NCBI GenBank assembly: GCA_963739685.1 | Contig: CAVUAX010000006.1 | Coordinates: 73,670-137,669, forward strand | Reading direction: 5' to 3' | DNA length: 64,000 nucleotides | From: an uncultured Bacteroidales bacterium | GTDB taxonomy: Bacteria > Bacteroidota > Bacteroidia > Bacteroidales > VadinHA17 | Shown here: piece after piece, positions 10,979 through 25,282 of the stretch | How the letters are laid out: the number at the start of each line of letters is the position of its first letter | How positions within the stretch are numbered: position 1 is the first letter of the stretch | Made by a program: the position numbers and the translations under genes | Notes under the pieces: model-generated | What the model was told of the DNA's origin: nothing | Database searches by the model: none | What the model saw: only the letters and a program-made list of their open reading frames with translations

Positions 10979-11641
10979 TTATCTTTTTGCCAGGTCCACT
11001 ATATCCTTTACTTCAAGCACAGATTTTTCATAACCTTTAGTTACGCAGTTTATCATAGCAATTCCAACCTCTTTAAGTGTTGAAACAAACCCCGGGAACA
11101 GAATGCGAAGAACCGGATAAAGAAAATTGAAAACAATATAATACCCCGGTACATTTTTAGCTTCCTGCGCAGGGAGCATAAAACCCGGACGAAAGGCATA
11201 AACTCTTTTGAAAGGAAGTTTCATAAGATCATTCTCCGTTTTTCCCTTCACCCGGGCCCACCTGAGCCTCCCCTTTTCACTGCTGTCTGTTCCTGCTCCC
11301 GAAACATAGCAAAATGTCATACCTGGGTTAAGTCCTGACAGTACTTCTGCAACATGCATTGTCAGATTGTAGGTAACTGAATAGTACAATTCCTCCTTCA
11401 TATTAACCGACGAAACACCAAGACAGAAAAAGCATGCGTTTAAGTCTTTCAGCTGATCGGCGACAGGACTGAGATCATAGAAATCAGTATGGATGATCTC
11501 GGAAAGTTTAGGATGAGTTACTCCGCAGGGCCTTCTGTTGAGAACAACTACCCTTTCAACGTCCTTATGTTCAAGTGACTCCAGCAGCACACCCTCACCA
11601 ACCATTCCGGTCGCACCTGTGATAACTACCTTTACTTTCAT
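10979..11641 (-). CDS. NAD(P)-dependent epimerase-like atypical SDR (CC3-like)
   Basis: ITGATGMVGEGV, CFFCLGVSS, YVSGAGTDSSE, WARVKGKTEN, FRPG. Confidence 0.85.
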   Translation of the reverse strand: MKVKVVITGATGMVGEGVLLESLEHKDVERVVVLNRRPCGVTHPKLSEIIHTDFYDLSPVADQLKDLNACFFCLGVSSVNMKEELYYSVTYNLTMHVAEVLSGLNPGMTFCYVSGAGTDSSEKGRLRWARVKGKTENDLMKLPFKRVYAFRPGFMLPAQEAKNVPGYYIVFNFLYPVLRILFPGFVSTLKEVGIAMINCVTKGYEKSVLEVKDIVDLAKR

Positions 11642-11661: not shown

Positions 11662-13206
11662 TTAGAATCGCTCATCCGGTTTAAGGAATACCGTTTTGGG
11701 ATTTTCTGAATCGAATTTTCTGATTAATTCAAATATTGAAGGGATCTGTTTCCGGAAACGTGATATAATTTCATCATTTGTATTCAACCGGCTTACCGGG
11801 ACCTGCCTGGTGTCATAAAAATGATTTTCCTCCCTGCCATATTTATAGTCATAGGTAAACCGCTGAGTTGAATCAGTTTTAATTCCGTCACCAAGTTTAT
11901 CCGGTACACTTATATAGAACTCACTATTATTAATATTTCCACTTTTATTAGCCAGGTTATTTGCAGTAATATAGTCATAAACTTCTTTTGCGGTATTTAT
12001 TGCCGGATCTATCAGTATTATACTGTCGCAAAGGTATTCCCTGTAAATAAATTTGTCGTTAATCTTCAAATTGTATAGATCCTTTAAGCTTTTTTGGATA
12101 AATGCAGACAGGTAAGGATAATGTGTACATCCTAATATTAAAGTTTTTAACGGTTTGGCAACATGCTCCAGCCTTAATTTCTCGCAAAGAGAGACCAGAT
12201 AATATTTCATATAATTATCTGGGCTGTTTAGCTGAATGATACTGCAATCATCATTATTCACGTCGCACAGGAGAGCATTATTGATTGTATCAAATTTATA
12301 CATTTGCATCAATTCCCTCCGGATTTTCAGATCCGCGCTGCTTAATGACGGACCCTTATAATCTTTTCGGGGTGCAACAACATTTCTGGTTAAATAATTC
12401 GGATCCTCATCAATTGCTTCTGCAATACCCGTTCCGGCTTGCTGAATAAATTCGATATTACCTGAATAACCTGATTTTGACCTGATAGCATTAAAAGTAT
12501 TAAGATATCCGTTTGATGATACAGTTCCGGCCGTGGCAAGAACGGCAATTGTTCCGCTTTCATCTTTTTTAAATGTTGCAAGAGCCCCGTTGATACCTGC
12601 GTCTATTACTCCTATGACTTTTATTTTACTGGCAGCGTCAGACAACATATTTTCGATGTCCTTTTTTCCATAAGCAGTAGCAGTGTTACAGGCAATTACT
12701 ATGAGTTTAACGGACTTTTTATCTGTCTGATATGTTTTGTCTTCGGGAGTCCTGTAGTATTTATTCCCCAGTAAAAAGAGTGCATCTTTAAGTACCAGTT
12801 CCTTCAGGAACCCGGTTTTATTTTCTTGTGAATAATTCCCGTAAGGCATATTTGCCTGATCGCCAAAATAGATAAATTGTTCTGCCTGAAAGTCTTTGAT
12901 CCCATCTCCACCCTTCACAGGTTTTTGATTTGAATTATCGAAATTATCCAGATCAATTAAAGCATTCAATACCGTTAGTCCGCCTGTTCCCGAATCAAAA
13001 ACTCCAATTGGCAGGGTAGCAGACAAATTGGAATTTGTCTTTAAATCAACATAGTAATAATCCGTTTTATCATTAAGTACCTTATTCAGAAAGGAGTTAT
13101 TATAATTGACCGGCGGTTTTGTCTGAGGATTATAGCAACCTGTCAGCAGCACCCCGATGATGAAACTTAAAGTAAAATAAATTCTGACTTTTAATATGTT
13201 TTTCAT
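11662..13206 (-). CDS. Lipoprotein of the Asp/Glu racemase (MurI-like) family with large insertions
   Basis: Lipobox LLTGC; IGVFDSGTGGLTV, YFGDQANMPYG, IACNTATA, LATAGT, LGCTHYP, LIDPA; 514 aa. Confidence 0.85.
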   Translation of the reverse strand: MKNILKVRIYFTLSFIIGVLLTGCYNPQTKPPVNYNNSFLNKVLNDKTDYYYVDLKTNSNLSATLPIGVFDSGTGGLTVLNALIDLDNFDNSNQKPVKGGDGIKDFQAEQFIYFGDQANMPYGNYSQENKTGFLKELVLKDALFLLGNKYYRTPEDKTYQTDKKSVKLIVIACNTATAYGKKDIENMLSDAASKIKVIGVIDAGINGALATFKKDESGTIAVLATAGTVSSNGYLNTFNAIRSKSGYSGNIEFIQQAGTGIAEAIDEDPNYLTRNVVAPRKDYKGPSLSSADLKIRRELMQMYKFDTINNALLCDVNNDDCSIIQLNSPDNYMKYYLVSLCEKLRLEHVAKPLKTLILGCTHYPYLSAFIQKSLKDLYNLKINDKFIYREYLCDSIILIDPAINTAKEVYDYITANNLANKSGNINNSEFYISVPDKLGDGIKTDSTQRFTYDYKYGREENHFYDTRQVPVSRLNTNDEIISRFRKQIPSIFELIRKFDSENPKTVFLKPDERF

Positions 13207-13218
13207 TCATTAATCATT

Positions 13219-14388
13219 TTAATACTTACCATATTCCATGAGGGTTTCCCACATGGCCCAAAAGTTTTCAGGCGGGACATCTTCCTGAACATTATGGACC
13301 GGAGTAAATACAAATCCTCCCCCGGGAGCCATTATATCAAGTATTTTCTTTACCTCATCCTTAACCTGGTCAGGGTTGCCATTTTTAAGAGTCGCTTGTG
13401 TATTTATTCCCCCTCCCCAGAATACAAGGTCTTTTCCAAAATCCCTTTTTAACCCCTCTAATTCCATATCTGCAGCGGTGAACTGAACAGGATTATAAAT
13501 ATCAAGGCCCGCCTCAATCAGATCGGGCAGTAATACCCGGACCGAACCACAGGTGTGCATGAATATTTTAATATGGGGTAATTTCCTCCTGATATGTGTC
13601 CATAGCTTTTCAAATCTCGTTATAATGTTCTTCCGTAAGTAATCAGGTTCAAGCAATGTGGAAGTCTGTGTTCCAAGATCATCGCATTCTGAAACGACGG
13701 TCACAATGTTATGAAGATTATTTTCGAAAAGCCAGTCTATTATCAGGTCCCAGTAATTGATTTTGTACTCAAGAAGAAGGTCAAGAAGCTTTTCTACTCC
13801 GGCAGGATCAGTAATGGTGTCCATGTACCAGTTCTGATATCCTCTCAGCCGTAACGACATTTCTGTAAGACCGGCGCAATTTCTGTCAGCAATTACACCA
13901 TAATCATGAATATCCCTTACTTGTTCTGACAGATCATTTCGGATTATATCAGCATGTTTAGCAGCTTCTGGAAATTTATAATTTTTAAGTCCCTCATTTA
14001 TTGAGGGGAACGATTCAAGGGGATAGGAATACTGATTAAAATAGAAATCCTTCGTTTCATCCATTTTCCATAGACAAGCCCAATCATCAGTTAATTCAAT
14101 GATGCCGTCTTTTATGGTTATAATTTTTTCATAATCCGGGATCCTGCGGGAACCGATACGCCGTGTATCGGTATTAAGTAATTTCAATGTTGCATCAACA
14201 GGTGTTACGATCTGTTGTATGGGATCAATCTCTTTCTTTTCATAATCGGTCGATAAACCCCGATACTCCATTGCCCTGATAAATGCCCTTTTGTTGATTC
14301 CTGTGACAGTGGTACCGGCAAGGTCATAAGGAATCCTGTCAGGTTCTTTATGATTAAGAGTTGTATTCAGACGTTCAGAACTTTTCAT
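13219..14388 (-). CDS. Uroporphyrinogen decarboxylase / MtaA-CmuA methyltransferase family protein
   Basis: MKSSERL...HKEPDRIP, LRG, DDLGTQ, HTCG, FWGGG, PGGGFVFTPVHNVQ.DVPPEN. Confidence 0.85.
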   Translation of the reverse strand: MKSSERLNTTLNHKEPDRIPYDLAGTTVTGINKRAFIRAMEYRGLSTDYEKKEIDPIQQIVTPVDATLKLLNTDTRRIGSRRIPDYEKIITIKDGIIELTDDWACLWKMDETKDFYFNQYSYPLESFPSINEGLKNYKFPEAAKHADIIRNDLSEQVRDIHDYGVIADRNCAGLTEMSLRLRGYQNWYMDTITDPAGVEKLLDLLLEYKINYWDLIIDWLFENNLHNIVTVVSECDDLGTQTSTLLEPDYLRKNIITRFEKLWTHIRRKLPHIKIFMHTCGSVRVLLPDLIEAGLDIYNPVQFTAADMELEGLKRDFGKDLVFWGGGINTQATLKNGNPDQVKDEVKKILDIMAPGGGFVFTPVHNVQEDVPPENFWAMWETLMEYGKY

Positions 14389-14394
14389 AGCGGC

Positions 14395-15666
14395 TTACAG
14401 ATTAACGGGTTTTATTTCAGGAATAAGCAACTGGATTAATCCCAGTGCAATAAAATAGCCAATAGATGCAATAAAAAATGGTAAAATGTAACCGTTCATT
14501 CCCAGGTTTTGAAGTAATCCTCCAACGAGCTGAGCAATAAGTGCTCCTCCGAGTGCACCGGCAAATCCTCCTATTCCGGTTATAGAAGCGGTTGCTTTTC
14601 TGGGAAAAATATCGGACATAAGGCTGAATATATTTGCCGACCATCCGCAATGACCGCCTGCGGCTATTGCAATCAGAGCCACCGTAAGCCACATATTATC
14701 GATGTGAGGGACCAACATTACTGGAAGGGCAAAAATAGCGCAGATAAAAAATCCCATCTTTCGACCCTTATTCAGGGACCAGCCTATTTTCAGAAATTTC
14801 GACGAAAGCCATCCCAGGAAAATCCCTCCTGCCCATGATACAAGATAAATTGTAAAGAAAGGTAATCCAATCTCTTTCAGGTTAAGGCCATATTTCCCGT
14901 TAAGAAATTTTGCACCCCAGAAAAGATAGAACCACCAGATGGGGTCAGCCATAAATTTCCCAACACAAATTCCCCAGACTTCCCTTCTTTTTAGTAAAAC
15001 CGACCACTTAATTTTTTCTGATGTCACTGTTTCATTATCGCTGTTTATATAATCAAGCTCGACTTTACTAACAAGTTTATGTTTTTCGGGTTTTTTGTAA
15101 AAAACCAGCCAAAGTATTATCCAGATGCAGCTTATTGGCATTGTCCATAAAAAGGCTGCTCTCCAGTCATCATTAAAGGCTGAAACAACAACCGGTATTA
15201 TCAGGGGGGACAACAGAGTCCCCACATTTGATCCTCCATTGAACAGACCAACTGCAAAAGCTCTTTCTTTTTTCGGGAACCATTCTGCAAGCACTTTATT
15301 TGCAACCGGAAAGTTGCCTGACTGACCGACTGACAAACCTGCACGGACCAGCGCAAATCCGATCCATGATCTTGCAAAAGCAGTTGAAGCCTGAGCCAGC
15401 GACCACAAACCTACAGATATGGTATAACCTGCTTTAGTCCCTATTTTGTCAACAACCGCCCCCATTATCAGAAAACAGATCGCGTAACCTATCATAAATG
15501 CCGTATTGATGTTACCGTATTGTTGTTCGTTCCACCCGATTTCTTTTTGAAGAAACGGAGCCATAATACCAAGGGCAGAACGGTCAATATACAGGAGTAC
15601 CGTTGCAAAAAACAGAAATAAAAGGATTAACCATCTGATATTCGTATTTATGTATTTTGATTTCAT
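14395..15666 (-). CDS. MFS transporter, ExuT/hexuronate-like (ACS family)
   Basis: IRWLIL..LFFAT.LLYIDR, EWFPKKERA.A.G.FN.G.N.G, DPIWWFYLFW. Confidence 0.85.
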   Translation of the reverse strand: MKSKYINTNIRWLILLFLFFATVLLYIDRSALGIMAPFLQKEIGWNEQQYGNINTAFMIGYAICFLIMGAVVDKIGTKAGYTISVGLWSLAQASTAFARSWIGFALVRAGLSVGQSGNFPVANKVLAEWFPKKERAFAVGLFNGGSNVGTLLSPLIIPVVVSAFNDDWRAAFLWTMPISCIWIILWLVFYKKPEKHKLVSKVELDYINSDNETVTSEKIKWSVLLKRREVWGICVGKFMADPIWWFYLFWGAKFLNGKYGLNLKEIGLPFFTIYLVSWAGGIFLGWLSSKFLKIGWSLNKGRKMGFFICAIFALPVMLVPHIDNMWLTVALIAIAAGGHCGWSANIFSLMSDIFPRKATASITGIGGFAGALGGALIAQLVGGLLQNLGMNGYILPFFIASIGYFIALGLIQLLIPEIKPVNL

Positions 15667-15827
15667 CTCTTTGATCTGATAGGCTGGTTATTATGACATT
15701 TGATGATTTTAAGAAGGTTTTTGATTTTGCGATAACGGATTAAAAGTGATAACCAACGGATAAATCACTGCAAAACACTATGTTTCACCCTGCTGGTTAA
15801 CAGAGGTTACAGACAGAAATTGTAATT

Positions 15828-17183
15828 CTAAACTTTATCAGGAACAACAAATGGTTTGCGATACTGCCGTGTAAGCATAGCGTTAGCTTCGGGGTCCTGA
15901 ATGAATTCCATTTTTACCGGGTCAAATTCAAGAGTTCTACCCAGGCGATACGAAATATTTCCAAGATGCATTACCGCACATGAATAAAATCCATCACGTA
16001 TATCACCCTGTGCCAGTTTCTGATCATTTGCACGGATAGCATTTATAAAATCTGCGTAATGATCGCCAAGACCACTCCCAGTTTCACCAGGGGTACGCTC
16101 TTTTCCATAAAATACCTGCCATTCGTTGACATTTTTGGTCATAAAACCTTTTGAACCGAAAAAGAGATTCCCTACAGTATTCTCTGCACTAACCATATAG
16201 GCATCTGATGCAGGATTATCGTTTTTTATCCCTTCCCTGTTTGTTATCCAGTGGCGAACCTCAAACTGAAGTATTTTCTTTTTATCGCCTCCGCCTTGCG
16301 GATTTGGAAATTCAAATACAGCTACCATGTCATTAGGTGTTTGCTGATCATCGTCGAACATGAAATGTCCGCCCATAGCGCTTATTTTTGAAGGCAATGT
16401 AACATTCAATCCCCACCGGGCAATGTCCATTTCGTGAACACCCTGGTTTCCCATGTCGCCATTTCCATAGTCCCAGTTCCAGTGCCAGTTGTAATGGAAA
16501 CGGTTCTTTGAGAATGGTCTTTTTGGTGCCGGTCCTAACCACAGATCGTAATCAACCCCTGCCGGAACAGGTTCGTCAGGTGTTTTCCCGATAGTATCGC
16601 GCCATTTGTAGCAAAGTCCTTTTGCCATATATACCTCTCCCAGTTTTCCCTGGTGAAGAAATTCAGCCATGCTTTTTCCACATGGATTACTTCTCTGTTC
16701 AGCACCATCCTGAACTATCAGTTTATATTTTTCAGCAGCTTCAACCAATTTACGGCCTTCATAGAAATTGTAACAACAAGGCTTTTCCACCGATACATGT
16801 TTACCTGCCTGCAATGCCCATATCGAGGCGAGGGCATGCCAATGGTTCGGAGTCACAATCGAAACAGCATCAATATCTTTATCTTCATAAAGCTTTCGCA
16901 GATCTGTATAAGTTTTTGGTTTTGGAAGACCTTTTGCAGTGAAATGTTTTTTGATCAGCGGGTCGAAAAGGTTACTGTCAACATCACAAAGTGCAGCAAC
17001 TTGTACATTTTTAAGCGTAGAATAACTCTGGATGTGGCTTTGACCCTGTCCGTTTATCCCTATAACTGCAACATTGACACGGTCATTAGCTCCTTTCCAT
17101 CCGGTGTCTGCAAGTATTGTCGGTGCAACTCCTATCCCCACAGAGCCGGCAACAGCTATTTTACTAAATTCACGTCGGTTCAT
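15828..17183 (-). CDS. Tat-exported Gfo/Idh/MocA oxidoreductase
   Basis: Twin-arginine MNRREF; TPNHWH, VEKP, DYDLWLGPAP, GDMGNQGVHEMD. Confidence 0.9.
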   Translation of the reverse strand: MNRREFSKIAVAGSVGIGVAPTILADTGWKGANDRVNVAVIGINGQGQSHIQSYSTLKNVQVAALCDVDSNLFDPLIKKHFTAKGLPKPKTYTDLRKLYEDKDIDAVSIVTPNHWHALASIWALQAGKHVSVEKPCCYNFYEGRKLVEAAEKYKLIVQDGAEQRSNPCGKSMAEFLHQGKLGEVYMAKGLCYKWRDTIGKTPDEPVPAGVDYDLWLGPAPKRPFSKNRFHYNWHWNWDYGNGDMGNQGVHEMDIARWGLNVTLPSKISAMGGHFMFDDDQQTPNDMVAVFEFPNPQGGGDKKKILQFEVRHWITNREGIKNDNPASDAYMVSAENTVGNLFFGSKGFMTKNVNEWQVFYGKERTPGETGSGLGDHYADFINAIRANDQKLAQGDIRDGFYSCAVMHLGNISYRLGRTLEFDPVKMEFIQDPEANAMLTRQYRKPFVVPDKV

Positions 17184-17291: not shown

Positions 17292-18743
17292 TTACTTCAA
17301 TGGTAATACTCTGCAGACACCAGGTGCGTATCCGATTTTTACCGGTTTTGTACCAGCCATTAAAATTACAGAATCGTGATCCGGTCCGAAATCCGTACGA
17401 CGTACGAGCAGGCTGTCTCCCAGGGCAAGTCCTGAAATTACCGTTCCGGGTTTACCCGGGACATCAAATGTAACAGGTAGGCCATGATCGAGAAAAGCTC
17501 CATATTGCTGGGCAGCCGCGTAGACCTCATGAACCAGTTTCACCTCCTCCGGGAACTCCTTTTTATCACTCCACATGAAGAAAGTATCCGTACCTCTGAG
17601 TAACATATGCCATAATAGTTCCTGATAACTTGCTTTGCTCATTTGCTTAATGGTACTATCCCGATTAACTCCTGCAAATATTGTATTCCAGTGGACAAAG
17701 CTGATAACCGGGATATTTTGCGGGGTACTCTTGCCGGCATTACTGGCACAGAGTAGCATGTTATAAAACCAATTGTAATCTGAGTTTTCAAAGCCGTACC
17801 ATTTGTATATCCCCGACCATGTGTAAACGACCGGCATCGCAAAAGTGAATCCCGTCAGTGGAAAGTCATTGTACCACTTTCTGTATTTTGCATTATGATC
17901 TGCTTTATATGGCTGACCATTAACATAATACTCAAAATAATCATACCAGTAACGGTAACCATCATTGGGATATACAGCGTAATTTCCTGCCAGAGCTTCA
18001 GGGAACTGCTCAAGAACAGGGGCACTGAAAGAATAATACTGCAGGTAAGCCCGCATCTGTCGCATGGACTTCTGAAAATCTTCAAATGTGAAGTCTTTTC
18101 CCAGATAGCGGCAACATCTTGTACACTTTTTTGAAGCTTCAAAAGCACGATTTACCTCAATGGGTCCGTCAATTTCCCAGTCAGTAAAGATAAAATCAAC
18201 CGGTAAACCGGCTTCTTTATACTTTTTGACAAAAAATTCCACGCGATCCCTGATCTCCTTTTTCCTGAAATCAATTGCAAACGGACAACCCATTTTGTGA
18301 GGGCCGAAACTATCATCAAAAAAGGGCTGACCATCTTTATCAATATGGGCGGTTTTTTCATCACCATTAAAGAAAGAATTCAGGAGGGAGGTGGCATCGA
18401 TGTTAATACGCAGTCCGGCTTTTTTCTGGGCACGTGCTATAGTCAAACCCTGTGATAATATTTTTTCCCGGTCTTTTATCTTCCATGAGCAAACTAATCC
18501 CACCCCACGTTTATTAAGTTCATTTACCAGTTGTTCGGCAGAATCATCAGTAAGCTCCCCGGGGTCAATTGCCGGCCAGAGGTATAGCGGAAGGCGATTG
18601 CCCCTGGAATACTTTAAAGGGGTTGTATTATCAAGTATCACCTGAATGTTATCAGACCATTTAATGCCAGCGACCTTCTCTTCAGGCGAAGAACATTGTT
18701 TAACTGAAAGAAAAAAAATAAATGTGAGAATGGTTATTTTCAT
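17292..18743 (-). CDS. Exported hypothetical protein, possible TIM-barrel glycoside hydrolase
   Basis: Signal peptide with a possible lipoprotein Cys; VDFIFTDWEID; very Trp/Tyr-rich; function not assignable. Confidence 0.55.
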   Translation of the reverse strand: MKITILTFIFFLSVKQCSSPEEKVAGIKWSDNIQVILDNTTPLKYSRGNRLPLYLWPAIDPGELTDDSAEQLVNELNKRGVGLVCSWKIKDREKILSQGLTIARAQKKAGLRINIDATSLLNSFFNGDEKTAHIDKDGQPFFDDSFGPHKMGCPFAIDFRKKEIRDRVEFFVKKYKEAGLPVDFIFTDWEIDGPIEVNRAFEASKKCTRCCRYLGKDFTFEDFQKSMRQMRAYLQYYSFSAPVLEQFPEALAGNYAVYPNDGYRYWYDYFEYYVNGQPYKADHNAKYRKWYNDFPLTGFTFAMPVVYTWSGIYKWYGFENSDYNWFYNMLLCASNAGKSTPQNIPVISFVHWNTIFAGVNRDSTIKQMSKASYQELLWHMLLRGTDTFFMWSDKKEFPEEVKLVHEVYAAAQQYGAFLDHGLPVTFDVPGKPGTVISGLALGDSLLVRRTDFGPDHDSVILMAGTKPVKIGYAPGVCRVLPLK

Positions 18744-18821: not shown

Positions 18822-20474
18822 TTATTTACTCTTGAGGATCAGGTTTGCAAGGCTCTCACGCGCTTGTTCGTATGCTTCCCTTTCATGGCTCCAGTTCTGG
18901 AATGAAGTTGCAATACCGTCAACGATCTTCTTAACCTCCTCAGCCTTGCCGAGACTTTTTGCCAGAGCCATATACTCATAGTCTTCGACTGATTCACGAT
19001 AAAGCTTCAATCTTATTGAGGGTACAAATCCTTTTACGCCTGCAGGTTGACCGGGATAGAGCAGCATGCCCTCTCCCCAGTAATTTTTACGGAAGTAAGG
19101 CGCTTCCCATACTCCCTGCAATGAACCATAGCCATTCCAGAAACTGCTGGACCAGTAAAGAAAACCTGTAATGTCATAGTGCCAGCTAATCCACATAGGT
19201 GCGCGAAAGTTAAGAGGATCCATATCTATCTGCCACCACGGTGTTCCATCAGGTCCCTGACATAGTGCTGTATAGCTCCATAATTCTTCACCCAATGCCA
19301 GTCTTTCCCTGGCAGTTGAATCATTCCATAAGCCCCATAAAGGGCACCAGATGGTTACTGCACCATAAAGGTTGCCCCATGCTTTATTGCTTGTAATTGT
19401 CTGCTCGGTGCACAACCTTCCGATCTCCGGATTGGCCGATTTGATCATTGCTCCCTGTTTCCGGACGATCTCATATTCTTTGATATCGTTAGGTTCGTCT
19501 TCCATATAAACATAGGACATGTCAAGATATCCCAGTTTCTTAAGCCATTCTGCAGTTGCTGCCAGATAGGCTTTACATTTTCTGGTGTCATCCTTATAAC
19601 GGAAAGGTATATCCAGAGCATTAAAGTGTTCTTTGTTCACCAGCAACCGCATTGTGTCGGCTTCACCATGGTCAATTATTCCTTCCTTTTCGTTCCAGTC
19701 GGGCCAGGCAAAATCCGGTGTAGCGGGTACTGCCCGGTTCTTAAGTAACTCGAGGTCATACATTGATTCCATCTCCCTAAACTCTTTGCTGTCAACCTCC
19801 ATCCCCATCATTTTCGCTGCTTCACCATTCAGACTTCCAAAGTGAGATAGCATTGAAATCTTTGAGGGTAGTTCGAATCCCCAAACTTCAATAGCTACAG
19901 GGATGTCCGTAAGTTTTCTTTTCCCTGTCACCACAGTTACTTTCCCCTGATATAACCCTGGTTTTGTTCCAGGTGGCACAAAAAGGTCACACCAGACTTC
20001 CGCATTCTGGGCTGTATCAACATCGAAAGGCGCAGCGTTATAGATTACCTTCTCTGGCGCTGTACCGGACTGAGGAAAGGCAAAAGGTATAAGTGCATCG
20101 GGATACCAGCCTGCAGGATTTTTGGTACGGCTGCTGGGTTTGGTAATGTTGAGGTAGTTAGCCCTGTAGAGCCTGAGGTTTTCTGCAGGTATCTCACCAT
20201 CATTGCTTTTAAGGCTGCCGGCAATTACATTTACATCTTTAAGTAAATTTTCCCCGGAATTGTGGACAATAAGCCTGAATGGTTCATACTCATTGGCTGC
20301 GGCTTTTAGATTAACACTTTTCAGTTCTCCCGGAAGAGTATTGCGCATCACTCTCTGCCATGGGGTTGCAATCCAAACCGTAGCTTTTTCGCGGGTGCAG
20401 GCCAATAATATTATTGTTAGTACACACCACAGAATAACTGATTTCTTTATGAATGCCGGCTTAATTTTTTTCAT
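18822..20474 (-). CDS. DUF4091 / GH123-like glycoside hydrolase lipoprotein
   Basis: Lipobox LLAC; AAANEYE, WYPDALIP, DEP acidic pair, GFLYW, GEGMLLYPG, PSIRLK..RE..EDYEY. Confidence 0.75.
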   Translation of the reverse strand: MKKIKPAFIKKSVILWCVLTIILLACTREKATVWIATPWQRVMRNTLPGELKSVNLKAAANEYEPFRLIVHNSGENLLKDVNVIAGSLKSNDGEIPAENLRLYRANYLNITKPSSRTKNPAGWYPDALIPFAFPQSGTAPEKVIYNAAPFDVDTAQNAEVWCDLFVPPGTKPGLYQGKVTVVTGKRKLTDIPVAIEVWGFELPSKISMLSHFGSLNGEAAKMMGMEVDSKEFREMESMYDLELLKNRAVPATPDFAWPDWNEKEGIIDHGEADTMRLLVNKEHFNALDIPFRYKDDTRKCKAYLAATAEWLKKLGYLDMSYVYMEDEPNDIKEYEIVRKQGAMIKSANPEIGRLCTEQTITSNKAWGNLYGAVTIWCPLWGLWNDSTARERLALGEELWSYTALCQGPDGTPWWQIDMDPLNFRAPMWISWHYDITGFLYWSSSFWNGYGSLQGVWEAPYFRKNYWGEGMLLYPGQPAGVKGFVPSIRLKLYRESVEDYEYMALAKSLGKAEEVKKIVDGIATSFQNWSHEREAYEQARESLANLILKSK

Positions 20475-21739: not shown

Positions 21740-22612
21740 ATGAAGAAAATATTTATCCCGGCATTGATCATTTTTAATAGCCTATTCCATGTTGCAGGGC
21801 AGGTTATCAGATTTGAATCGGCAGATGATTTTGTACTTAAGTGTGGTTTTGCCAGCATTATTCCTCATCGGAATGTTGGCCACGGGTTTTCCAAATGGTA
21901 TGATTTCATGCCGCAATGGAACGCAATCTATGCTGAAATGATCGCAAAATTCGATTCTGACCAGTCACTGGTTAATAAGGATGCCCCGAATAAAAAGATA
22001 CCGACTATAATAACTCTCGGGAAGAGCGGAGTTAAAAGTAATGTCATTGCTGTCATGTTCTCAGGTGACGGAGGTTGGTACGGACTTGAACAATCGATTG
22101 CCAACCATTTGGCTAATTCCGGGATCTCAACAATAGGAATAGATACCAGAAAGTATTTCTGGAACAGAAAAACTCCTGAAATAACTGCCTCTGATGTGGA
22201 GAGTCTCCTTAATTATTATGGAAAAGAATGGAACAGATCACAGTTCATGTTTATCGGATATTCACAGGGAGCTGAGATTATCCCATTTGTTATAAACCGC
22301 CTTCCGGAGGTATTAAAATCCAAAGTTATTTCAAGTGTAATGCTTTCTCCTGAAGAGACCACTGATTTTGAAGTACATATTAGTAATATGCTGGGATTGG
22401 GAAACAAACAAAACACCTATGATGTTATTGCGGAAATTTCCCGGATAAAAAAGATTCGTCAGATTTGTATTTTTGGTGAGAAGGAGGACACTAAGGTTCC
22501 CGGATTACTTAAAGGCAAACATGTTGAGGAGGTATTTATTCCTGGTGACCATCATTATAAGAGTAATTCAACTTTAATTGTTCAGGAGATGAAAAACAAA
22601 CAGGCATTTTGA
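21740..22612 (+). CDS. AcvB/VirJ-family alpha/beta hydrolase (aminoacyl-phospholipid hydrolase)
   Basis: SGDGGW, YFW..KTPE, GYSQGA nucleophile, PGDHHY; adjacent to mprF. Confidence 0.85.
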   Translation: MKKIFIPALIIFNSLFHVAGQVIRFESADDFVLKCGFASIIPHRNVGHGFSKWYDFMPQWNAIYAEMIAKFDSDQSLVNKDAPNKKIPTIITLGKSGVKSNVIAVMFSGDGGWYGLEQSIANHLANSGISTIGIDTRKYFWNRKTPEITASDVESLLNYYGKEWNRSQFMFIGYSQGAEIIPFVINRLPEVLKSKVISSVMLSPEETTDFEVHISNMLGLGNKQNTYDVIAEISRIKKIRQICIFGEKEDTKVPGLLKGKHVEEVFIPGDHHYKSNSTLIVQEMKNKQAF

Positions 22613-22699
22613 ATATCTGGTTTATTGGCATGAAGATATCCTGGATTCGCTTTTCGAATTTTTTGAATAAAACTGACCGGTTCAACTCAAAACCTATTA

Positions 22700-25282
22700 A
22701 TGAAGAAAATAGCTACACTTTTTCGCGGTAACTCGGGCATAATAGTAAGATATTCCCTGACAGGATTGTTTATTGGTCTGGCAGTATGGTTCTTCCATCA
22801 CGAAAAAACCGAACTTCATAGCGTCAGTAAAGTAATATTTGAGGCAAGGCCCGCCTGGATAACTGCAGGGCTCGGACTGGTTATAATATATATCCTGCTT
22901 CAGGGATTTATGTATGTGGCTTCATTTGCATCGGTAAATGCAAAGGTTACTCTCTGGGATGCGGTAATTCTTTTTCTCAGGAGAAACTTTATAAGCGTTT
23001 TTATACCTGCCGGCGGAATTTCGTCTTTGGCATTCTTCAGCAAGGCAATAGAAAAAAAAGGGGTATCCAGATCTCAGATCTATTTTGCCTCATCCATTTA
23101 TGCATTTGTCGGAATCCTTTCAGTAATTGTGGTTGCGTTTCCCGCATTTCTTTTTGCCGTTTCACATGATAAAAGCGGAATGGCCAAATGGTATGCACTT
23201 TCCGGAGCAATACTTATTCTGGCATTGTTTTATTTCATTTATAAATCTCTTATGAGCAAAAAGTCACTATACAAATGGCTCATAAAGATTTATCCCGCTG
23301 CAGCTGTATTAATCGATGAAATAAGCACTAATGAGATAATAGTAAAACATTTTTATTTTACCGTACTGGTTTCAGTTTTAATTGAATTTGCGGGAATAGC
23401 TCATGTTTACATCTCAATGGCCGCTTTGAACATTACTCCTTCTTTATCCACTGCAATAATTGCATATATTATTGTGGTACTTTTTCTTATTGTTTCTCCT
23501 TTTTTGAGAGGGCTCGGAGCTATAGAAGTTTCGATGTCATATATTTTATTCAGTTCAGGTTACAGCAATGTTGAATCAATTGCTATTACATTGTTATTCA
23601 GGTTCTTCGAGTTCTGGTTACCACTTTTTACAGGATTAGTAAGCTTTTTACTAAAAATAGAAAGGCTTCTGATGAGGGTACTGCCATCATTTCTGATCTT
23701 TGCTCTGGGTATAGTAAATATTGTGTCAGTACTTTCCCCTGATAATCCGGTGAATCTTAGACTATTGCGGGCTTATCTGTTTTTTGATGTTGTAAATTTT
23801 TCTAACAGCTTCGTTCTGATAACCGGCTTATTTCTCCTTGTAACTGCCGCTTTTATGTTAAGAGGGCTCAAAGTGGCATGGTGGATCGCAATAATTCTGA
23901 GTCTGTTTTCGGCTGTTGGCCATATTACAAAAGGTATAAATTATACCGAATCAGGTATCGCTTTGTTTGTCTTTTTCGCTTTAATTACCACAAAGAAAGA
24001 ATACTATGTAAAAACAAACCCACGGATCCGGACAATTGGTATTCAGACAGCTTTATTAAGTATCCTGGCCGTGCTTGTTTACGGGATTGTGGGATTTTAT
24101 TTCTTTGACAAAAAACATTTTCAGATAGATTTCAGTATCCTTCAGTCAGTAAAATACACTCTTCTTGACTTTTTTCTGGTAGGAAGTGAAGATCTTGTGC
24201 CACGCGATTCATTTGCATCTGATTTTCTTTATACCATTAGCATAGGTGGTGTTGCTACGGTGTCCTTTCTCATATATTCATTGATCCGGCCATATTTTTT
24301 CAGGAGTTCTCCCACTGAGGAAGAAAAGAAAACTGCGGAAAAGCTTGTAAGCCTATATGGGAAATCATCGCTCGATTATTTCAAGTTATATTCTGACAAA
24401 CAGTTTTTTTTGCTTACAGGAATAAATTCATTTATCTCTTACAGGGTGAGCGGTAATTTTGCTGTTGTGCTTGAAGATCCTGTTGCACCCGGGAGGGAGG
24501 AGATGAAAAAATGTATCATCGAATTCCGTAAATTCTGTTATGATAACGGATTAAAGGAGCTTTATTACCGTGTACCCAAAGAGAGTCTTGAAATTTACAG
24601 TGAGGTATCAAAAAAGAGCCTTTTTCTTGGGCAGGAGGGGGTTGTTAATCTTTCCGATTTTACTCTTGAAGGTGGGGAAAGAAAGTCGATAAGGAATGCC
24701 CTTAACAAAATTTCAGAACATGGATATGTTACGCATATTTATAACCCGCCTCTTAAAGATGGACTGATTCAAAAACTTAAATCAGTCAGTGATGAATGGC
24801 TGAGAATTTCCGAGAGAGAAGAAATAATGTTCTCCCAGGGAATCTTTCTCGAAAAAGAGATTAAACATCAAACTGTAGTAACAGTGGAAAACGTAGAAGA
24901 GAAAATTATAGCGTTTATTAACATCATACCGGATTTTGTCAAGAACGAAGGTACCTATGATCTTCTTCGTAAATCAGCTGATGCACCTAACGGTATTATG
25001 GATTATATTCTTGTTGAACTTTTTAAATATTTCAGATCCCGTGGGATCCAATATGTAAACCTTGGGTTTGCACCTATGTCAGGGCTTGATGATCCCCATA
25101 ATTTCCCCGAAAGATCAATGAAGTTTGCTTATGAAAAAATCAGGTCATTCTCTCATTTCAGAGGTCAGAGGGATTATAAGGAAAAGTTTCATCCGGTCTG
25201 GTCAGACAGGTACCTGATATATGATAATGATTATGACCTGATAAGTGTGCCCGGGGTTCTTTCCAGAGTTATAAAACCTTGA
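22700..25282 (+). CDS. mprF: Aminoacyl(lysyl)-phosphatidylglycerol synthase/flippase, MprF/LpiA family
   Basis: Multi-TM flippase region (GLGAIE, LLFRFFEFWLP) plus synthase domain (SLDYF..DK, GQEG, YDLLR...APNGIMD, NLGFAPMSG, YKEKFHPVW..RYL). Confidence 0.88.
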   Translation: MKKIATLFRGNSGIIVRYSLTGLFIGLAVWFFHHEKTELHSVSKVIFEARPAWITAGLGLVIIYILLQGFMYVASFASVNAKVTLWDAVILFLRRNFISVFIPAGGISSLAFFSKAIEKKGVSRSQIYFASSIYAFVGILSVIVVAFPAFLFAVSHDKSGMAKWYALSGAILILALFYFIYKSLMSKKSLYKWLIKIYPAAAVLIDEISTNEIIVKHFYFTVLVSVLIEFAGIAHVYISMAALNITPSLSTAIIAYIIVVLFLIVSPFLRGLGAIEVSMSYILFSSGYSNVESIAITLLFRFFEFWLPLFTGLVSFLLKIERLLMRVLPSFLIFALGIVNIVSVLSPDNPVNLRLLRAYLFFDVVNFSNSFVLITGLFLLVTAAFMLRGLKVAWWIAIILSLFSAVGHITKGINYTESGIALFVFFALITTKKEYYVKTNPRIRTIGIQTALLSILAVLVYGIVGFYFFDKKHFQIDFSILQSVKYTLLDFFLVGSEDLVPRDSFASDFLYTISIGGVATVSFLIYSLIRPYFFRSSPTEEEKKTAEKLVSLYGKSSLDYFKLYSDKQFFLLTGINSFISYRVSGNFAVVLEDPVAPGREEMKKCIIEFRKFCYDNGLKELYYRVPKESLEIYSEVSKKSLFLGQEGVVNLSDFTLEGGERKSIRNALNKISEHGYVTHIYNPPLKDGLIQKLKSVSDEWLRISEREEIMFSQGIFLEKEIKHQTVVTVENVEEKIIAFINIIPDFVKNEGTYDLLRKSADAPNGIMDYILVELFKYFRSRGIQYVNLGFAPMSGLDDPHNFPERSMKFAYEKIRSFSHFRGQRDYKEKFHPVWSDRYLIYDNDYDLISVPGVLSRVIKP

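Follow-up and report, generated by a model that had tools for sequence, protein, structure and literature searches.

A long, lipoprotein-type relative of glutamate racemase from a Bacteroidales bacterium is a putative periplasmic enzyme for D-glutamate salvage

We analysed a 64,000-nucleotide stretch of DNA from an uncultured Bacteroidales bacterium (contig CAVUAX010000006.1, positions 73,670 to 137,669; hereafter, the window) and focused on one of its minus-strand genes, an intact open reading frame (ORF) with an ATG start that encodes a 514-residue relative of glutamate racemase, MurI (Table 1). Housekeeping MurI is a cytoplasmic enzyme of about 250 to 290 residues that supplies D-glutamate for cell-wall synthesis. 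The window protein departs from this description in being about twice as long, in bearing a signal peptide, in scoring below the cut-offs of the glutamate racemase models, and in being encoded by a patchily distributed accessory gene that stands beside a housekeeping murI in the same genome; its relatives, unlike MurI, occur fused to or beside hydrolases of catabolic type and a glutamate importer. Together, these features point to a putative exported racemase that would make D-glutamate available as a nutrient.

Table 1. Features of the 514-residue protein and its nearest neighbours, in positions of the window
Feature	Residues	Position	Strand	Basis
514-residue MurI-like protein, coding sequence (P0001)	1-514	11662..13206	-	ORF list, translation, MurI homology, AlphaFold2 model
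Signal peptide (K2, K6, R8; hydrophobic core I9-L21)	1-23	13138..13206	-	sequence; model helix 2-21
Lipobox L-L-T-G-C24; Cys24, predicted lipidated mature N-terminus	20-24	13135..13149	-	sequence pattern
Mature N-terminal extension, not in canonical MurI	24-63	13018..13137	-	MurI structures align from residue ~61; conserved in family
FDSGTGG (Asp71-Ser72)	70-76	12979..12999	-	aligned with same motif of solved MurIs
Insertion 1 (near-invariant D87, D101, D105; invariant E109)	86-110	12877..12951	-	gap in MurI alignments
GDQANMPYG (P121-Y122-G123)	115-123	12838..12864	-	alignment with MurIs
ACNTA, catalytic Cys173	172-176	12679..12693	-	alignment with MurIs
ATAGT (T225, T228)	224-228	12523..12537	-	alignment with MurIs
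Insertion 3, predicted beta-hairpin 312-326	266-345	12172..12411	-	gap versus MurI of the same genome; model secondary structure
LLCDVNNDDCS, Cys314/Cys321 pair in hairpin	312-322	12241..12273	-	sequence and predicted hairpin
GCTHYP, catalytic Cys360 and His362	359-364	12115..12132	-	alignment with MurIs
IDPA	399-402	12001..12012	-	alignment with MurIs
Insertion 4 (near-invariant K455, Y456; invariant R458)	~420-477	11776..11949	-	structural alignment extent; conservation
URO-D/MtaA-like protein, upstream neighbour, 12-bp gap		13219..14388	-	Pfam URO-D match
Major facilitator superfamily (MFS) transporter, anion:cation symporter type		14395..15666	-	TIGR00893, 220 bits, below cut-off
Short-chain dehydrogenase/reductase (SDR)-like NAD-binding protein, 220 residues, downstream neighbour, 20-bp gap		10979..11641	-	Pfam

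An earlier note, made from the letters of this DNA, had listed all the MurI motifs in order together with both catalytic cysteines, and each of them could be located residue by residue in the 514-residue ORF. By sequence, the protein matched 22 distinct solved glutamate racemases (E values from 4.4e-13 to 5.8e-09) in four blocks with gaps between them. Profile searches matched it to TIGR00067 (E 2.9e-25; 89.1 bits against a curated cut-off of 146.65), to NF002035 (E 4.3e-26; 92.1 bits against 328), and, as its sole Pfam match, to PF01177 (E 2.6e-06; 27.8 bits against 31), and the model of the cysteate racemase CuyB matched weakly and below its cut-off (E 3.5e-05). This similarity to MurI is far beyond chance. 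Judged from the sequence, the MurI catalytic core appears intact, with Asp71/Ser72, Pro-Tyr-Gly 121-123, Cys173-Asn-Thr, Thr225/Thr228, Glu263, and Cys360-Thr-His362 all in place; in MurI structures, the FDSG, PYG, and TxxT motifs and the histidine after the second cysteine serve the substrate site. The same note had proposed a cofactor-independent racemase, a proposal that the retained catalytic and substrate-binding motifs and the MurI fold support, and the Pfam scan detected no cofactor-binding domain in the protein.

An AlphaFold2 model built on an alignment of 92 family members (every second of the best 120 matches, plus full-length representatives) has a mean predicted local distance difference test score (pLDDT) of 94.2, a predicted template modelling score (pTM) of 0.90, and no segment below 50. 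It begins with a helix (residues 2-21) and a lower-confidence linker (pLDDT 63 in the block 21-30), which lead into a single compact body. In a Foldseek comparison with the PDB, the rows listed as far as 2jfn (rank 48) were without exception glutamate racemases, with 2gzm_A as the top match (E 1.9e-15; TM 0.76, normalised by the target), and the alanine-racemase fold was absent from the listed rows. Superposition of a predicted structure on MurI was among the checks suggested at the outset, and it identifies the core as the MurI fold: in an independent VIA-align search against representative structures, 5w16_A, the Thermus MurI, gave a Z score of 25.5 at a root mean square deviation (rmsd) of 2.3 Å, with 247 of 256 residues aligned at 32% identity and model residues 61-499 spanned. 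The Campylobacter and E. coli MurIs gave Z scores of 23.4 and 20.4, and the scores of aspartate, hydantoin, and allantoin racemases were lower (13.6 to 17.4). The protein thus shares with the MurI/RacE family (TIGR00067 and PF01177; structures 5w16, 1zuw, 2gzm, and 2jfn) both the two-domain alpha/beta fold and the ACNTA/GCTHYP, FDSG, PYG, and TxxT motifs.

What the protein has in addition is considerable. The MurI structures align to the model over 247 to 255 residues; the span from 61 to 499 has 439 residues, of which only about 250 are thus aligned and about 190 are insertions. Counting residues 24-60 and 500-514 as well, the protein has about 240 residues, out of 490 in its mature form, that go beyond MurI, in agreement with the earlier description of a protein of twice the normal size with several insertions; they fall into an N-terminal extension and four insertions, which pairwise alignments place at about residues 86-110, 147-166, 266-345, and 420-477. 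These insertions keep invariant or near-invariant residues of their own (D87, D101, and D105 in 91 of the 92 members each, E109 in 92, K163 and K167 in 91 each, P286 in 92, N327 in 91, K455 in 88, and R458 in 92), which argues that they are functional parts and not spacers. The four acidic and four basic residues in this set suggest a salt-bridge network joining the insertions, and the conserved insertions probably form an added subdomain, with stability outside the cell or the binding of a partner or ligand as candidate roles. The extra cysteine pair that had been noticed in LLCDVNNDDCS is indeed present in the third insertion as Cys314/Cys321, and it co-occurs across the family: both cysteines are found in 46 of the 92 members, neither in 40, and one in 6. 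From this co-occurrence we infer a possible disulfide; shared descent could give the same pattern.

The N-terminus carries the features of a lipoprotein signal, as the earlier note had claimed from the string LLTG-C. A hydrophobic core of 13 residues is followed by L-T-G-C24, which satisfies the lipobox rule that we applied ([LVI][ASTVI][GAS]C, with the cysteine at about residue 15 to 35), and the residues after Cys24 (Y-N-P-Q-T-K-P-P) include no acidic one. Because the signal peptide ends in a lipobox, export by Sec, lipidation of Cys24, and tethering through a flexible linker are predicted. The signal is a property of the family: a cysteine occupies the aligned lipobox column in 81 of the 92 members, the strict lipobox rule is satisfied by 54 of them (the window protein included), and a hydrophobic N-terminus, defined as an 11-residue window with a mean Kyte-Doolittle hydropathy of at least 1.6 within the first 45 residues, is present in 91. 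Several members without the lipobox cysteine have N-termini that, read by eye, resemble signal peptidase I substrates.

A separate canonical murI, for which the earlier note had advised looking, exists in the same genome (G000:C3:366879-367619). It scores 211.8 bits to TIGR00067, above the cut-off of 146.65, and its ORF has 285 residues, a TTG start, and no hydrophobic N-terminus; it shares 22% identity with the 514-residue protein over the core, with the insertions appearing as alignment gaps. The window gene, which has a signal and is not the only MurI of its genome, is therefore a paralog. Two further paralogs of the Asp/Glu racemase superfamily, in frames of 257 and 237 residues (G000:C1:642776-643240 and G000:C3:509393-509857), score 47.9 and 35.5 bits to TIGR00067 and are probably aspartate racemase-like.

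A word-indexed search scored 8000 candidates and returned 5586 proteins at E<=1e-3; the 119 best matches besides the query have 357 to 541 residues and 47 to 81% identity, and an exhaustive search of 50%-identity representatives gave 147 clusters at E<=1e-30. Members carry the source labels "glutamate racemase", "Asp/Glu/hydantoin racemase", or "hypothetical protein", the cluster names of the ESM Atlas are the automatic "glutamate racemase family" only, and NCBIfam holds no dedicated model for the family. The organisms named include Mariniphaga, Yeosuana, Psychroserpens, Tenacibaculum, Polaribacter (P. porphyrae), Reichenbachiella, Algibacter, and Flavobacterium (F. weaverense), and sources assign fused members to Chitinophagaceae-type genera and to Pirellula/Planctomycetaceae. 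The window protein belongs to a large uncharacterised family of proteins of about 500 residues with a patchy distribution in Bacteroidota and further members in Planctomycetota-named records. Carriers are rare: of 300 other genomes sampled across the phylum, 5 have the gene, one of them as a fragment with stop codons; in one Bacteroidota family of a different class from the window genome (f30), it was found in 21 of 166 genomes, and these racemases share 47 to 54% identity with named Flavobacteriaceae proteins. One degraded gene for a long racemase, at G012:C34:287938-289069 (L012, L013), is split into two fragments, one of them with 7 stop codons, and looks like a pseudogene remnant.

Within the 92-member alignment, both catalytic cysteines are kept in 80 members (the Cys173 column in 81 and the Cys360 column in 84). 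The remaining motif residues are conserved to a similar degree, namely D71 in 87, S72 in 86, D116 in 92, P121 in 90, Y122 in 91, N174 in 84, T175 in 83, T225 in 82, T228 in 83, E263 in 72, T361 in 81, H362 in 84, D400 in 88, and P401 in 92 members, and Y125 and N119 are invariant residues beside the MurI motifs that are specific to this family. Twelve of the 92 members (for example, P0189, P0196, P0207, and P0245) have lost one or both catalytic cysteines, as where ACNTA is replaced, and retain the signal peptide and the invariant residues of the insertions; they may be a non-catalytic, perhaps binding, offshoot of the family.

Relatives in which the racemase is fused to a second protein give evidence on function. 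Proteins of 901 to 2570 residues at E<=1e-20 numbered 71, with partners taken from precomputed domain annotations, and both catalytic cysteines are kept in all of them. Amidohydro_3 (PF07969, D-aminoacylase type) is the partner in 26 of the 71, a beta-lactamase-fold/peptidase S12 domain (PF00144) in 12, the Na+/glutamate symporter GltS (PF03616) in 10, gamma-glutamyltranspeptidase (GGT; PF01019) in 7, a peptidase C26 of the gamma-glutamyl hydrolase type in 2, and an Asp-Al_Ex/TrkA_C transporter in 1; another 11 have other partners (glycoside hydrolases, TPR, beta-helix, S15/GDSL-type, and others), and 4 have no recorded second domain. Two of the seven GGT proteins, P0277 and P0281, are GGT-racemase-S12 triple fusions of 1456 residues each with an N-terminal signal, and are counted under both PF01019 and PF00144. 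In 55 of the 71 long fusions, the partner thus releases D-amino acids or gamma-glutamyl groups or imports glutamate. The names given to fused proteins by their sources run along the same lines ("N-acyl-D-aspartate/D-glutamate deacylase/glutamate racemase", "Racemase/peptidase S12 family protein", "ESS family glutamate:Na+ symporter"), and among representatives of intermediate length we found one fusion each to a D-glutamate-cyclase-like, Peptidase_S11, Peptidase_C26, GH5, MatE, and VTT domain.

Fusions also bear on the side of the membrane at which the racemase works. A hydrophobic N-terminus is present in 68 of the 71 relatives longer than 900 residues. In the racemase-GltS fusions (ten clusters), the racemase domain leads directly into the GltS domain; in all ten, the first membrane helix is followed by a 20-residue stretch with three to four Lys/Arg and no Asp/Glu, and the linker before this helix never exceeds a net charge of +2 and is on balance acidic in five. 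By the positive-inside rule, this charge pattern places the racemase domain on the outer side in 10 of the 10 clusters. The N-terminus of E. coli GltS is reportedly periplasmic, a point on which we do not rely. The extracytoplasmic location proposed in the earlier note is thus supported by the family-wide signal, by the signals of the fused relatives, and by the topology of the GltS fusions.

The gene neighbourhoods of other carriers add a second line of evidence. The 19 loci retrieved were 18 of f30 and one of another family (f9), to which we added one from a close relative (L006); ORFs were called by a simple longest-ATG rule and then clustered. A metagenome scan with general MurI motifs kept 80 loci, of which 13 (L033-L045) hold the long form and the other 67 gave matches at the level of ordinary MurI (E 1e-16 to 2e-21). 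In f30, 10 of the 18 loci, from four genera, have a same-strand gene for an AmpG-family permease (~615 residues; best match TIGR00901, 158 bits against a cut-off of 350, in two stretches) upstream of the racemase gene, and it is the immediate upstream neighbour in six, with gaps of -8 to 208 bp to the racemase. Before it, nine loci have a BadF/BadG-type kinase gene that is most like N-acetylglucosamine kinase (NagK). After it, four loci, and a fifth cut by the contig end, have a gene of ~950 residues that fuses a GH3 NagZ-like to a PBP4B-like beta-lactamase-fold domain (L015:13892-16726, L020:5859-8735, L024:3652-6528, and L032:7350-10232), with a hydrophobic N-terminus in three of the four. 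Divergent from the NagK-like gene in some f30 loci (L016:15493-18715, L017:13956-18854, L021, and L030) are MBOAT, AMP-binding, and GDSL-like genes, which might be a cell-wall O-acylation set.

An Amidohydro_3 gene, the commonest partner in the fusions, directly adjoins the racemase gene in L026, L033, and L038 and lies one gene off in L018, where its product matches D-aminoacylase (1m7j, E 1.6e-79) and N-acyl-D-glutamate deacylase (3gip, E 4.3e-72); all four copies have lipobox or twin-arginine-type signals, their N-termini being read by eye. The window genome itself has, unlinked to the racemase gene, a gene for a lipobox-bearing D-aminoacylase homolog that is 37% identical to the L038 copy; the only match to AmpG in this genome is weak (30.8 bits), so that a muropeptide permease is not shown for this genome. 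Other loci with the long form have two S12-type genes (L033), a SusC/SusD pair (L034), or an M1 peptidase gene (L037), and in L036 and L045 the surrounding gene sets are of the Planctomycetota type; no informative neighbours were found at L014, L019, L023, L027, L028, L029, L035, and L039-L044.

We consider it likely, if well short of assured, that the window protein is a periplasmic, lipid-anchored, cofactor-independent glutamate racemase that salvages D-glutamate from peptidoglycan or gamma-glutamyl peptides. Export by Sec and lipidation at Cys24 would leave the enzyme tethered and facing the periplasm, where its two cysteine thiols would interconvert D- and L-glutamate outside the cytoplasm. 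Exported amidohydrolases of the D-aminoacylase type, S12 (beta-lactamase-fold) peptidases, and gamma-glutamyltranspeptidases would free D-glutamate there from the stem peptides of peptidoglycan, from N-acyl-D-glutamate, or from gamma-D-glutamyl peptides. The racemase would run from D to L, fed by these hydrolases and pulled by glutamate uptake; in the relatives whose racemase and GltS form a single polypeptide, a GltS-type symporter would import the L-glutamate. The benefit would be the use of D-glutamate as a nutrient without disturbing the cytoplasmic D-glutamate pool of the housekeeping MurI. In E. coli, that enzyme is held in check by a precursor activator; the title of PDB entry 2jfn has the E. 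coli MurI activator bound. More broadly, the family appears to be a large, unrecognised, exported subfamily of MurI, with a predicted function that is well supported by comparative genomics. To the further proposal that this is the first thiol-based, cofactor-free periplasmic racemase, and the last enzyme of an extracytoplasmic line for dismantling peptidoglycan peptides whose steps are, in some bacteria, fused in polypeptides of up to 1456 residues, we would give about even chances; the insertions would then be an adaptation to tethered work in an oxidising compartment or serve for partner docking.

The earlier note had left two substrates open, free glutamate or a larger, linked form held by the insertions. 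Free D/L-glutamate is favoured, because free glutamate is what the fusion partners liberate or take up, and because the protein keeps the motifs by which MurI binds it. Were the ~240 extra residues with their invariant or near-invariant charges (D87, D101, D105, E109, K163, K167, K455, and R458) a binding site, the protein could instead be a periplasmic epimerase for linked glutamate (L-Ala-D-Glu, gamma-D-Glu-meso-diaminopimelate, N-acyl-D-Glu, or a muropeptide), a reading to which the muropeptide-handling genes and peptidases associated with the family, and the retention of these charges even in members without the catalytic cysteines, lend some weight. We think it unlikely, since the residues that enclose free glutamate in MurI are conserved, since the partners within the same polypeptide release free glutamate (D-aminoacylase type, GGT) or transport it (GltS), and since the core superposes on closed, D-glutamate-bound MurI structures at an rmsd of 2.3 Å.

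A further alternative concerns the direction of the reaction. BsrV, BsrF, and RacK depend on pyridoxal 5'-phosphate and have the alanine-racemase fold. According to PMC12502697, they are amino-acid racemases with a secretion signal and a periplasmic location, and racemases of the periplasm are known to produce D-amino acids for the editing of peptidoglycan. The likeness lies in the export of a racemase; the window protein differs by its MurI fold and by its predicted role in D-glutamate salvage, as opposed to the production of non-canonical D-amino acids. All the evidence for export and catalysis would apply equally to an enzyme that, like these three, ran from L to D and provided D-glutamate for wall editing, signalling, or an extracellular polymer; that it does so is improbable, given that the partners are hydrolases freeing D-amino acids or gamma-glutamyl groups and a glutamate importer, not transpeptidases or ligases, and that a rare, patchy gene is unfit for a role in wall building.

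A different small acid is very unlikely to be the substrate of this exported racemase, whether D-aspartate, D-glutamine/isoglutamine, or a 5-oxoproline-related or cysteate-like compound. The scores below the MurI equivalog cut-offs, the weak CuyB match, and the family-specific invariant residues Y125 and N119 beside the motifs would allow it, yet the best matches by both sequence and structure are glutamate racemases (Z of 20 to 25, against 14 to 17 for aspartate racemases), the PYG, CNT, and CTH motifs are of the MurI type, and fusion partners are glutamate-specific (GltS, GGT, and proteins named as N-acyl-D-Asp/D-Glu deacylases). Last, an ordinary cytoplasmic MurI with a mis-set start (an in-frame TTG at codon 61 precedes the PIGVFDSG motif by five residues) or a non-catalytic binding protein (as the Cys-deficient family members might be) can be set aside as far-fetched, given the canonical murI elsewhere in the genome, the conserved and confidently modelled residues 24-63, the conservation of the signal in homologs, and the presence of every catalytic residue in the window protein.

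Several observations weigh against D-glutamate salvage by an exported enzyme as we propose it. All family-model scores fall below the curated glutamate racemase cut-offs, so that we infer the substrate from the conserved motifs, and a racemase is reversible, so that its physiological direction is deduced from the partners only; 16 of the 71 long fusions have other partners or none on record. The two catalytic thiols must remain reduced in an oxidising compartment. Besides the TTG at codon 61, an in-frame GTG lies at codon 19; the conservation and confident modelling of residues 24-63 argue that the long form is translated, and an additional short, signal-less product from a downstream start is formally conceivable. 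The family occurs in 2 of 400 other genomes of the same class, one copy being broken, and the gene was found in none of 60 other genomes of the genus, which makes it dispensable and possibly recently acquired. The f30 loci come from related genomes (four genera have the AmpG context) and are therefore not independent. Finally, the local context in the window gives no support, and the URO-D neighbour is probably not functionally tied to the racemase.

The proposed salvage route has counterparts among known systems. Recycling of peptidoglycan peptides in E. coli (AmpG, NagZ, MpaA, YcjG, and PepD) is cytoplasmic, and its L-Ala-D/L-Glu epimerase, YcjG, belongs to the enolase superfamily. It deals with the same problem, in that the D-glutamate of stem peptides is made usable, and relatives of the long racemase lie beside AmpG-, NagZ-, and NagK-like genes; unlike YcjG, the window protein would be an exported enzyme of the MurI fold that probably acts on free glutamate. 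DgcN/DgcA of marine bacteria likewise carry out a dedicated catabolic conversion of D- to L-glutamate, and differ in belonging to another enzyme family, in using an N-acetylated intermediate, and in being cytoplasmic; they were not among the partners of the long-racemase family in the fusions and loci examined. D-aminoacylase and N-acyl-D-glutamate deacylase (1m7j and 3gip) have a non-homologous amidohydrolase fold and would act one step earlier, releasing D-glutamate. We found no description of an exported, periplasmic, or lipoprotein glutamate racemase in the full-text literature, a coverage that leaves subscription journals outside.

Two D-amino acids predominate in peptidoglycan, and D-glutamate is one of them. 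In deep-sea water, the debris of peptidoglycan is considered a major nutrient that contains nitrogen (PMC11044484). How D-glutamate is used by bacteria without cytoplasmic routes of D-amino-acid oxidation is only partly known, and if our proposal is correct, Bacteroidota and Planctomycetota would have in it a widespread means of feeding on D-glutamate from the walls of dead cells. With an exported racemase of the MurI type, a textbook enzyme family would gain both a compartment and a physiological role that are new to it, and such a subfamily would explain thousands of entries that are now labelled plain "glutamate racemase" and that metagenomic surveys count as cell-wall synthesis genes; glutamate racemase is treated mainly as anabolic in PMC12363236. 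The fusions suggest a testable periplasmic sequence of hydrolase, racemase, and importer. For enzymology, the question raised is by what means an extracytoplasmic enzyme keeps a pair of catalytic thiols reduced, and a naturally exported, cofactor-free racemase could be of use in biocatalysis.

In the window, the MFS, URO-D-like, racemase, and SDR-like genes follow one another with gaps of 6, 12, and 20 bp. Further upstream on the same strand lies a GFO/IDH/MocA oxidoreductase (GFO) gene whose product has a twin-arginine-like N-terminus and finds its best match in the BT_2158 glycoside 3-dehydrogenase family (184.8 bits; cut-off, 750), and GFO, MFS, and URO-D-like genes form a unit at 13219-17183. 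We considered this cluster as an operon clue to the function of the racemase and dropped it: two genomes of the same genus have GFO-MFS-UROD (G456) or GFO-UROD (G481) at 74 to 81% identity, both without the racemase that is missing throughout the genus sample, and the racemase therefore looks like a recent addition to an unrelated cluster. A scan of the window for promoters and terminators gave fewer sites than in shuffled sequences, with a tool whose scope does not extend to Bacteroidota-type promoters.

Beyond the unit, again on the racemase strand, lie a 483-residue ORF (17292-18743), which has no Pfam or NCBIfam match and is conserved in L006, and beside it a GH123-like gene (18822-20474); still further, at 21740-25282, a VirJ-like gene is followed by one for an MprF-like lysyl-phosphatidylglycerol synthase. 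L006, from an uncultured Bacteroidales metagenome-assembled genome, is the single close relative found in a genome-contig search with the 514-residue protein and carries an 83%-identical racemase ortholog. The two loci share the upstream gene order, and the SDR-like gene is not at the downstream position in L006. At L006:549-7985, the match to each of four orthologs (those of the 483-residue ORF and of the GFO, MFS, and URO-D genes) is split into two pieces that overlap, which suggests frameshifts, perhaps from assembly errors, and the racemase gene is intact.

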